From Squalus acanthias (lineage: Eukaryota), in contig CM059432.1 of assembly GCA_030390025.1 (NCBI GenBank), forward strand, positions 43,464,001 through 43,528,000: a DNA stretch of 64,000 nucleotides, read 5' to 3'. The notes below the pieces were generated by a model. That model searched no databases. It saw only the letters and a program-made list of their open reading frames with translations, and was not told the origin of the DNA. The translations under genes and the position numbers were made by a program. This document shows positions 575 through 4,480 of the stretch, piece after piece (within the stretch, counting starts at the first letter, position 1; each line of letters opens with the position of its first letter).

Positions 575-1319
575 GGAATAATTAAAAAAAAAATCTAAGT
601 GGATCTTTAATTTATTACAAACTACCAAGGATCACACTATCTTCCTTTTGCATGGTAAATCTTTGATTTTGTATATTTCAAATAAACTTGTGCTGAGCTA
701 GTTAGCTCCATAATAATGGACTGATCAGCATTGAAATGTATGATACTTGTGTCTCCTGTTTGCTAATCAGATTGGTGCTGCATACAGCTTCCTACCAGTG
801 CCGTCGCCATGACAACCACCTTGGTTGTTCCAGGTCTGGTAGAACACTTGCTTTCGTGCTGCATATTACTACTGGGGCAACACTGCGTCTTTTCATGTGC
901 ATATGGCTGCAGAGCTCCAGTGTGGAATTGCAGCCAAATGCAATCTATGCTTTACAACATGATGCTACAGCAGTGGTGGGCAAAATACAGCCCATGGGCC
1001 ATATCTGGTCCACCAAGTCATTCTATCCAGCCCACTGGACGGGACAGAAATAGAACGCAAGCCGGAGCTCGAGCTACACATTAGTCACTTCCACTTCTCA
1101 TGGGTCAGAGACGGACCCGAACTGTAGCCAGGAAACACACCGTAATAATTCAATTTATCAATTCGCAAAAGCGATTCTCCCCAGCCTGATCTTCAAGGGA
1201 TCCGTTCCGCTTCTGGGCCCCAATGGCAGATGTCCATACCCTGAATGCACTGCGTACTCGAACATACCCTATCATTTTAGAGTCGCGTCATGGCTGCTCA
1301 TCTCCATCTCTCCTTTATC

Positions 1320-1430
1320 AAAGAGACTGGCACTGTATCTTTCCTCTCCCTGTACTCCGAGTATGAAGGCAGGGGGGTTCTCATCGCCGTCTTAGACACT
1401 GGAGTGGATCCCGGAGCTCAAGAACTCCAG
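1320..1430 (+). pseudogene. TPP2: Fragment of tripeptidyl-peptidase II 5' coding region ([37 protein letters not shown])
   Basis: Matches the recalled TPP2 N-terminus [37 protein letters not shown], including the subtilase catalytic Asp motif LDTG; no further TPP2 sequence seen. Confidence 0.85.
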
Positions 1431-1682
1431 ATAATGGCACGCGATTATAGATACTGCGCATGCCTCACTGCTTATAGAGCAGCGTGTTTAGTCTGCCACC
1501 AGTTTTGTGGTCAATATTGTTTCTGTCATAATGGAGGGCTCTTCATTTCAACCTTGCTGTTGCAGGGGAACCATGATGTGGGCTTATTTCTGCTCACTGG
1601 GTCAGTGTTTATGCTAATTGGAACTTCTGTTGCGTCTGGACTGTGCTGAGGCTGATAAAGGGTTTTGCACACTGTATCACTT

Positions 1683-2468
1683 AGAATCATAGAATGGTTA
1701 CAGCACAGAAGAAGGCCATTCGGCCCTTCGAGCCCGTGCCAACTCTATGCAAGAGCACTTCAGCTAGTCCCACTCCCCGGCCCTTTCCCCATAGCCCTGC
1801 AATTTTTTTCCTTCAGGTACTTATCCAATTTGCTTTTGAAAGCCACGATTGAGTCTGCCTCCATCACCCTTGCATTCCAGATCCTAACACTTGCTGTGTA
1901 AAAAAGCTTTTCCTCATGTCGCCTTTGGTTCTTTTGCCAGTCACCTTAAATCTGTGTCCTCTGGTTTTCGACCCTTCCGCCAATAGGAACAGTTTCTCTC
2001 TATCTACTCTGTCTAGACTCCTCATGATTTTGAACACTTCCATCAAATCTCCTCTCAAAGTTCTCTGCTTTAAGGAGAATAACCCCAGCTTCTCCAGTCT
2101 ATCCACGTAACTGAAGTCCCTCATCCCTGGAACCATTCTTGCAAATCTTTTCTGCATCCTCTCTAAGGCCTTCACATCCTTCCTAAAGTGCAGTGCCCAG
2201 AATTGGACACAATACTCCAGTTGAGGTCGGACCAGTGTTTTATAAAGGTTCTTCATAACTTCCTTGCTTTTGTACTCTATGCCTCTATTTATGAAGCCCA
2301 GGATCCCATATGCTTTTTAACCGCTTTCTCAGCCTTCCCTGCCACTTTCAACGATTTGTGCACATATACCCCCAGGTCTCTCTGTTCATGCACCCCCTTT
2401 AGAATTGTACCCTTTAGTTTTTATTACCTCTCCTCGTTCTTCCTACTGAAATGTATCACTTCGCACTT
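1683..2468 (-). mobile_element. CR1 LINE 3' fragment nested in the hAT element
   Basis: ORF 1864-2256 LYKTLVRPQLEYCVQFW...LRGDL...TRGH is CR1 ORF2 C-terminus; typical 3' tail. Confidence 0.9.
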
Positions 2469-2648
2469 CGAGAATAGCCTCGTACAGAGGTATCCTTGAA
2501 ATCAGATAGCAAAATAAGGAACAATGGATACCTGCATGGGGTACTGGAAATAACATAGCAAACAGCCAGCTGCACAGTCAGATATGTAACCCCTGTATGT
2601 TTTCAAAGACAGTGCAAATGTAGCTGGTTGGTTTCAAAAGCTCTTACT

Positions 2649-2859
2649 CAGGGGTGGCCAATTATTTGGGCTGGAGGGGCACTTAACAATACTGCACGCG
2701 CAGTATCTCTTCCAGCTGCAGGAGCTGGTGAGAGGCTTGTGCGGGACCTCATGATTGGTGTGCGGCCGCGCACCTTAGGGGGAACTTTGGTGTGCGGCCC
2801 TCAACAGCTCGCCAAAACTTGTTAAGTGGCCCTCCAGCCCAAATAATTGCCCACCCCTG
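2649..2859. mobile_element. hAT MITE-like module with 40-bp inverted repeats forming the right end of the 971-2859 element
   Basis: 2649-2688 vs 2820-2859 match as reverse complements at 38/40. Confidence 0.85.
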
Positions 2860-3070
2860 TGCTACAGCAATCCATGCTGACTAGCATCCCATCACGATGA
2901 AAAGAGCCTGTGCAAAAATGCAGCTTCCAAGGGCAGCAAATAACTCATTGTGTTGTCAGGCCACTTTTGTTATTTGCTTATTCATTCATCTGTAAGGTCA
3001 GCGGGGTCTAGCAGTTCTCCCTATGTGGCTGCGCTGACTGATATTGTTTTGTGTGTCATTCTTCTTGCAG

Positions 3071-3252
3071 GCCAACCTGCCCCTGCTGCAGAGGGAGCTA
3101 CTTCACTGCGCGCGCTTGGCCAAGCAGAACCCGGCACAGTACCTCGCACAGCATGAGCAGCTGCTGCTGGATGCCAGCACCACCTCACCCGTCGACTCCT
3201 CCGAGCTGCTGCTTGATGTTAATGAAAATGGGAAAAGGCGAACTCCAGACAG
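3071..3252 (+). CDS. RUNX1T1: RUNX1T1 (ETO/MTG8) internal coding exon, end of NHR1/TAFH region ([25 protein letters not shown]...KRRTPD)
   Basis: Acceptor ttcttgcag| and donor AG|gtgaga; peptide matches the ETO family as recalled; 182 nt with phase 2 fits the next exon. Confidence 0.95.
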
Positions 3253-3859
3253 GTGAGACAAATGGCAGCAATTTATCAACAGAATGGTTTCTTTTAGAAC
3301 CGAAATGTATCTGCGCAGATGCATCATGGGGGCAAAAAAGCATGCGAATGAATGCTGACTTGTGCTTTTTCTTCCTTAAATTGCAACAGCTTGTTGTCAA
3401 CTGTGGAAATTAATTCTGAGTCAGGAAGCTTTTTTTTCCTTTCTTCTTTGTTGAGTTAATTAATGAACCCGTGGTACTGTGTTTAATCCTATCTCTAATC
3501 TTTTTATGATGGCAAGAGATGAGTAACTAGGAAAATGCTGGTTTAAGGGAAACAACTGACAGTTTTGCTGCTTCTCTTCCTGCATATGGTCAGCTATGGA
3601 TGAGTAGCTACAGCGAGGTTCTGAGTCCATTAAAATAGCTCATTAAAAAGATCAATCTGTTTCTGTTTCTGCACTATCCTAGGGATGCATCAGTCATTGT
3701 ACCTAACAAAATTTGACATTGGTATATAAGAGTAAATATGGTATCTACTTGAAATAGAATTTGGCAATATTGGAGTTAGGAGAGCTCCATGCTAATAAAG
3801 GAATGCTTTGTAAGCTTCTTGTCTTGGATTTATATTTGATCACCTTGCCTATTTTGCAG

Positions 3860-4110
3860 AACCAAAGAGAATGGCTACGATCGTGAGCCTTTGCACTCAG
3901 AGCATCCCAGCAAGCGGCCCTGCACTATAAGCCCCAGCCAACGGTTTAGTCCAAATAATGGGTTATCCTACCAGCCCAACGGCCTGCCTCACCCAACACC
4001 ACCCCCACCTCAGCACTACCGTCTGGATGATATGGCCATGGCTCACCTCTACAGGGATTCATACAGACATCCCAACCACAGGGACCTCAGGGACAGGAAT
4101 AGACCTCTCG
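3860..4110 (+). CDS. RUNX1T1: RUNX1T1 coding exon ([26 protein letters not shown]...RDRNRPL)
   Basis: attttgcag| ... CTCG|gtgagt; 251 nt; near-identical to human RUNX1T1 peptide as recalled. Confidence 0.95.
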
Positions 4111-4480
4111 GTGAGTATCAGTAGTGGGTCTTTGTCACCGCATGCAAAAACTTATAAAATAACCGTTCCATTTTCTTGATTTATTGTCAGCTGAACTGCC
4201 AAAGGCACGATAATGTACTAGATATCTAAAAGGATGAGTCGTGTTGGGATGATATATGTTTATTATTACTAGTGAACATTGCAAGTGCAATGGGCCAAGG
4301 CTTGCCTATAGACATTTGTGGTAAACTGGTGTGTTTGCTGAAGGATGGATGTGTCACTTTTATGTCAGTGATGAGAATTGCAGGGATGGTGGTGAGTTAC
4401 TTGATGGATAATATAAAAAAATGGCATGTTTTCCAGCAGAATAGCTTTGGAAGTCTGAAATTATTTTCCACTGTTGGCAG

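Follow-up and report, generated by a model that had tools for sequence, protein, structure and literature searches.

An element with hAT-type ends in an intron of RUNX1T1

The window, a stretch of 64,000 nucleotides from the 3.7-Gb genome of Squalus acanthias, covers part of a gene for CBFA2T1 (RUNX1T1): the exon at 3861-4109 encodes a sequence 92% identical to the protein of that name and 77% identical to CBFA2T3, and protein comparison placed another RUNX1T1 exon at 3071-3252 on the forward strand. Between the latter exon and a RUNX1T1 exon about 7.1 kb before the first base of the window sits an element inserted in sense orientation to the gene, so that the predicted location within a RUNX1T1 intron is borne out by the flanking exon. 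The element is enclosed by a perfect 8-bp duplication, TGCTACAG, which occupies 963-970 and recurs identically at 2860-2867, with TA at its positions 4-5. Directly inside lie 13-bp inverted repeats (971-983 and 2847-2859; one mismatch between them), ends that we take to be of the Charlie/MER58 type. The original prediction, based on the window alone, had described hAT-type ends with this duplication and no transposase between them, and we likewise found none in the element.

All internal features are on the forward strand unless stated otherwise. The native left end (971-1031) is common to sister elements with other cargo and meets, at a 4-bp microhomology, 5' flank/UTR sequence of TPP2 (1032-1084; host positions -65 to -13, 92% identical to TPP2 on contig C7). 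Inside the TPP2 UTR lies about 195 bp of CpG-rich cargo (1085-1279) that is found in 45 of 86 examined copies and has a CpG observed/expected ratio of 1.28 against a background of 0.44; one stretch of it resembles what we presume to be a ZNF143/Staf promoter motif. TPP2 exon 1 follows at 1280-1450 together with ~15 bp from the start of intron 1, with the ATG at 1290, the exon end at 1430, an internal deletion and a splice donor mutated from GT to AT at 1431-1432. The original prediction was thus right about the identity of the TPP2-like fragment and too narrow in its limits (1320-1430), since TPP2 sequence begins at 1032 and extends past the exon into intron 1.

An inverted-repeat comparison revealed a 15-bp inverted copy of a nested miniature inverted-repeat element (MITE), followed by about 80 bp of untraced DNA (1449-1546). 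A second captured host segment (1547-1681 and 2469-2648) is split by a 5'-truncated LINE fragment on the reverse strand (1682-2468), which we take to be CR1-like by its translation. This later insertion, with a 5-nt junction ambiguity, is confined to the window copy: copies free of it join 1685 directly to 2464, so that the element unit is 1.1 kb. Inverted-repeat comparison and copy alignment identified 2649-2689 as an inverted, reverse-strand copy of the terminal right 41 bp of the element; neither it nor the altered splice donor had been part of the original prediction. The right half of the nested MITE (2694-2789), which is whole and has its own 8-bp duplication in long copies, and the native right end (2790-2859), delimited by copies with both ends, complete the element. 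That 2649-2859 might be a separate MITE was rejected, as long copies end identically at the right and lack the inverted 41 bp. Searches of window fragments against protein databases gave no match.

The TPP2 sequence stems from genomic DNA of the host gene

The window fragment matched Drosophila TPP2 in the PDB (E 1.5e-7) and, as the original prediction had anticipated, aligned to the true TPP2 locus with its flanks, being 84% identical to the genome's own exon 1 over 131 nt and 92% identical to its 5' flank over 53 nt. Among 120 matches listed for a TPP2 exon of this genome, the top one was a Scyliorhinus protein with 89% identity. Two TPP2-like genes are present in the genome, on C7 and C6. 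Exon 1 of the C7 gene lies 8.4 kb upstream of exon 2 (79,120,827), with an ATG, an intact exon, a GT donor and no element ends, and the surrounding 50 kb contain no element end, just a 32-bp MITE piece at +12.4 kb. The C6 paralogue at 131 Mb was ruled out as donor by its 54% amino-acid identity and the lack of a DNA match. This second, diverged multi-exon gene (C6:130.98-131.08 Mb; L036-L055, L032-L035), with about 50-85% identity per exon to shark TPP2, is possibly a retained ancient duplicate. On C7, exons 1-2 (79.12 Mb) are 1.78 Mb away from exon 3 onward (77.34 Mb); N gaps at 77,341,620 and 79,110,527 point to a scaffolding error behind this split.

The longest copies of the element contain about 765 bp of TPP2 in one piece, from host position -65 to about +700, including 535 bp of intron 1. 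Their consensus is identical to host TPP2 at 708 of 744 aligned bases (63/66 in the UTR, 136/145 in the coding part and 509/533, or about 95%, in the intron). The presence of intron 1 indicates capture from DNA and excludes a retrocopy. An exon deletion of at least 16 nt was found in all 76 measurable copies among the 86 (17 nt in 43, 21 nt in 20). A tree of 45 copies and the host over +39 to +400, built without six duplicate copies and those that fall short of +380, was star-like with unsettled bootstrap values, and the host branch and the median tip were both 0.063. We infer from the common deletion and the star-like tree that there was one capture, soon followed by a burst. As judged from these copies, the TPP2 capture happened once and not at the window site, and the window copy is a late, rearranged member of the family. 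The predicted sequence of events, TPP2 capture by a transposon and insertion here, accordingly stands as to transposon capture, but the capture did not make this particular copy, whose ancestor already held the ~765 bp of TPP2.

Dispersed copies carry their own target-site duplications

A DNA query spanning 1020-1681 gave 41 matches (best 40 of 471 candidates scored), and the 39-residue TPP2 fragment gave at least 150 matches in the genome (150 scored of 395 candidates); the genuine gene accounts for one of those 150 listed, and 23 map to C26 or to contigs without a placement. At 19 other loci, similarity ends at the element termini and the LINE is absent, in line with the original proposal that a unit of ~1.1 kb, without the nested CR1, moved as one transposon. 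Both ends are present at 39 of the 86 examined loci, with target-site duplications matching at 8/8 positions in 12, at 7/8 in 11 and at 6/8 or fewer in 16. Among the 39 two-ended copies, 23 thus have a duplication of 7-8/8; in a null set of 1482 mismatched flank pairs, 7 reach this level, so that the duplications are not due to chance. Their sequences are distinct in all 23 copies, as expected from the predicted existence of further copies with different duplications, and the 13-bp repeat is kept at both ends in 23 copies.

The fourth target position is T in 20 of the 23 and the fifth is A in 22, giving a consensus nnnTAnnn; TA is also found in 27 of 32 independent left flanks. The same consensus is reported for Buster targets in PMC3517528. 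By its ends and target sites, the family is classified as a non-autonomous hAT with Buster-type target sites. Neither a transposase nor an autonomous partner was found in the element, in long copies or in the first 500 bp of 32 further left ends. A 550-bp inner segment of the long copies was considered as a transposase or exon and rejected, the best Pfam match (SelP_N, E 0.15) being taken as chance and no other match being usable.

The exact 23-base left end occurs 50 times in the genome and its reversed control not at all. Exact sequences make up 7 of 59 examined left ends, which would put the total in the genome at some 400, a coarse estimate given the bias of the sample. A single long copy recurs dozens of times together with its flanking DNA (92-96% identity) on C26 (39.7-43.4 Mb) and on unplaced contigs (L091-L093, L104); these repeats appear to mark a large duplicated array. 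Two copies (L106, C7:78.44 Mb; L111, C7:79.51 Mb) are found no more than 0.7 Mb from the donor exon of TPP2. This proximity, noticed post hoc, could be due to chance or to local hopping; in the tree, L111 does not branch basally.

Subfamilies differ in later cargo, including a second host segment

Subfamilies of the element differ in the cargo carried. The 195-bp insert and a 290-bp insert occupy the same spot in the TPP2 UTR. In one subfamily, an outer left end is followed by about 630 bp of 5' cargo, then by an 8-mer resembling a target site and lastly by a second, inner left end. The MITE nested in the right arm is flanked by its own 8-bp duplication, and two copies preserve its empty site. 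The window's subfamily comprises 24 of the 86 copies (50 candidates), in which 413 bp replaces most of intron 1.

An element-free locus on C19 (26.734 Mb) accounts for 316 of the 413 bp, with 96.2% identity to the subfamily consensus, and the match ends at the very base where the inverted 41-bp element end starts. Part of the window element is hence a second host capture, from C19, which accounts for some of the flanking DNA that had initially been left unexplained. The CpG observed/expected ratio is 0.44 in the traced C19 segment, the same as background (0.44), versus 0.77-1.28 in the untraced inserts.

Donors of the other segments, which may sit among candidates beyond those scored, were also sought. 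For the 195-bp insert, the best 40 of 193 matches (34 fetched, six recognised by their place) were all element copies, and in a second search the best 40 of 228 all covered element flanks. No donor was found for the 290-bp insert among the best 40 of 101 matches, with six further matches fetched, for the 630-bp segment among the best 40 of 264 (10 fetched; L208 carries this segment from near the left end onward), or for the 550-bp segment among the best 40 of 278 and the best 40 of 291.

Sister elements carry other cargo

Among the 50 exact left ends, 32 were new. In the 500 bp taken from each, 16 carry TPP2 DNA, one the 290-bp insert and three the 630-bp segment, while 10 have other cargo in three groups and two are minimal elements with duplications. 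The minimal elements (L228, L231), of about 48 and 212 bp, consist of the two ends alone with a near-perfect 8-bp duplication each. One type of cargo (L227:71-156 and L243:100-177, minus strand) combines a GC-rich leader with an ATG and a frame of 26 codons up to a GT donor. The tetraspanins CD9 (E 0.083) and CD81 were its sole PDB matches at E <10, and a Pfam search of the frame gave no match; the PDB matches hint at a tetraspanin-like first exon, which we assume to be exon 1 of TSPAN5/17. Non-TPP2 cargo in L236, L241 and L250 is a GC-rich segment with a GTGAGT donor at its end, and that in L222, L223, L229, L234 and L235 is a CpG-rich segment.

The copies are old and decay almost neutrally

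Fifteen copies of the window's subfamily differ from their consensus at 4.7% of non-CpG and 23% of CpG sites, the window copy at 4.1%. With the epaulette shark mutation rate of 7e-10 per generation (CI 1.4-14.1e-10; PMC10587355), a divergence of 4.7% corresponds to an age of tens of millions of generations or more, the rate being uncalibrated for Squalus acanthias. Contigs of two relatives about 1% diverged (organisms B and C) span 2835-4300 with 17 differences, and as just 25 of these bases are within the element, below the 31 required by the comparison, they weakly hint that the insertion is shared. An empty orthologous site was sought in relatives only ~1% diverged, and no such joint was seen among 15 of 206 joints listed.

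In 25 copies picked by their non-exon DNA, the nonsynonymous share of changes was 0.60 versus 0.65 ± 0.03 in simulations, 21-22 of 500 of which were as low (P 0.044), a test that ignores shared ancestry. A crude pN/pS of 0.5-0.57 was obtained for the 86 copies, which were partly picked by protein similarity. The copies thus decay near-neutrally, with a marginal nonsynonymous deficit. ATG, frame and GT donor are intact in 14 of the 25 copies; a net change of -21 nt, which regains the reading frame, is present in 18 of 25 copies of the window's subfamily, and a frameshift of -17 nt in 42 of 61 other copies. The copies are old and likely non-functional. With AT in place of the donor, splicing of the window copy into RUNX1T1 is unlikely. 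One sequencing run, guessed to be RNA, yielded short contigs dispersed over the element but no contig on RUNX1T1 exons.

Proposed history and alternative explanations

We consider it very probable that the element is one copy of a non-autonomous hAT family that took up TPP2 genomic DNA (5' UTR, exon 1 and the beginning of intron 1) and transposed with it, as a unit, to well over 100 sites, each with its own 8-bp duplication, its cargo having likely been acquired by template switching in repair or replication and its copies likely being dead. The order of events follows from the structure shared among copies. A single capture of TPP2 from -65 to about +700, with the exon deletion common to every measurable copy, was followed by nesting of the MITE in the right arm and then by entry of the CpG-rich inserts into the UTR in two separate subfamilies. 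In the window's subfamily, 316 bp of C19 DNA and the inverted element end next replaced most of intron 1; insertion into the RUNX1T1 intron in sense orientation, the CR1-like insertion and decay came last. The mover was presumably a Buster-type hAT transposase supplied in trans. The replacement in intron 1 could have arisen when a copy at the C19 site incorporated a reversed duplicate of its end and the adjoining flank before moving on, following the FoSTeST model of PMC8277862. Template switching is the likely route in view of the 4-bp microhomology at the left TPP2 junction and the inverted junctions.

Alternatively, the same family may have gained its cargo by aberrant transposition, through bypass of an end or use of the ends of two neighbouring elements. 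Such a route would suit the base-precise abutment of the C19 segment and the inverted element end, and the subfamily with the 630-bp segment looks as if a TPP2 element had jumped into a sister element and both had then moved together. However, apart from the MITE piece, no element end lies in the 50 kb around TPP2 exon 1, TPP2 joins inside the left arm at a microhomology rather than at the terminus, and both UTR inserts lack element ends. We regard aberrant transposition as a rather unlikely source of the cargo.

A different question is whether copies acquired a role. In a bolder reading, the hAT lineage would be a first-exon shuffler that repeatedly captured CpG-rich 5' ends of genes (TPP2, a tetraspanin and two or more untraced first exons that have GT donors) and spread them to hundreds of sites, some frame-restored copies now starting transcripts or splicing a TPP2 leader onto host genes; we give this little credence. 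Exaptation of some copies as alternative first exons or promoters that provide host genes with the TPP2 N-terminal peptide seems very improbable. The regained frame, the 14 copies with intact coding features, the slight nonsynonymous deficit and the CpG-rich cargo would all agree with it, but frameshifts affect most other copies, the deficit is slight and disregards common ancestry, the window copy has lost its donor, and the captured DNA upstream of the ATG amounts to 65 bp only, with an exon that has no acceptor.

Repair of a resident hAT in the RUNX1T1 intron with TPP2 DNA, that is, gap filling at a single site, is the usual origin of animal Pack-TIRs according to PMC8277862, but it is refuted by the identical internal structure at dozens of sites with differing duplications, and donor and window copy are on different contigs; its probability is negligible. 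A TPP2 retrocopy or segmental duplication with hAT-like ends by chance can likewise be dismissed, given the 535 bp of intron 1 in long copies and, for dispersed copies, similarity that stops at the inverted ends and duplications that differ, even though one copy did multiply with its flanks on C26 and unplaced contigs.

Relation to known gene-capturing transposons

The hAT family shares features of Pack-TIRs: its interior matches loci without a flanking element (TPP2 exon 1 on C7 and the C19 segment), introns are kept (533 aligned intron bases), and it transposed repeatedly to sites distal to the donor, working like Pack-MULEs. Our literature search returned no report of this element; the repeat libraries Repbase and Dfam, which may hold it unnamed, and most subscription journals were outside its reach. 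The one systematic survey of animal Pack-TIRs (PMC8277862) lists four multicopy cases (1.4%), with an example of three copies, and no Pack-TIR in elephant shark, and it concludes that inverted-repeat transposons capture genes almost exclusively through repair accidents that yield a single copy. A family such as the present one would likely escape the filter used there (unique best hit, 90% identity). Against these published animal Pack-TIRs, almost all single-copy, a high-copy, repeatedly capturing vertebrate Pack-hAT appears new, and it extends plant-style, high-copy, repeated capture by a hAT to a vertebrate. Its two traced donor loci and surviving intermediate forms make it possible to test, in the slowly evolving genomes of sharks, how cargo is captured and the bias towards 5' ends of genes. 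Without function, the family is a finding about genome evolution, not a new gene, and it can introduce hundreds of false TPP2-like fragments into shark annotation.

The closest relative in kind is Pack-hAT-N8_XT of Xenopus tropicalis, which carries the CAPSL 5' UTR (PMC8277862). Both are non-autonomous hATs with host gene 5' DNA inside, distinct duplications per copy, a donor on another chromosome and short microhomology, but Pack-hAT-N8_XT has three copies, whereas the shark family has more than 100 dispersed copies, several subfamilies and repeated captures. The bat Helitrons HelibatN3 (NUBPL) and HelibatN217 (TMBIM4) similarly bring promoter/5' UTR, first exon and part of intron 1 to high copy number in a vertebrate, with sequential captures and a bias to gene 5' ends (PMC4224331); they are rolling-circle elements, in contrast to the inverted ends and 8-bp duplications found here. 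In Pseudocercospora fijiensis, a hAT spread sequence of a housekeeping gene, histone H3, to hundreds of dead copies, but that case (PMC6710886) is fungal, RIP-inactivated and includes a complete hAT, while the shark family is non-autonomous and carries a vertebrate first exon. Buster-family hAT MITEs (Mar) have the same CAG(G/T)GG ends, 8-bp nnnTAnnn duplication and lack of coding capacity (PMC3517528); the shark element differs in its interior of host DNA and offers no transposase to place on the hAT tree. Finally, zebrafish hAT-N22_DR is another vertebrate hAT consensus listed with incorporated host protein sequence (PMC3597677).
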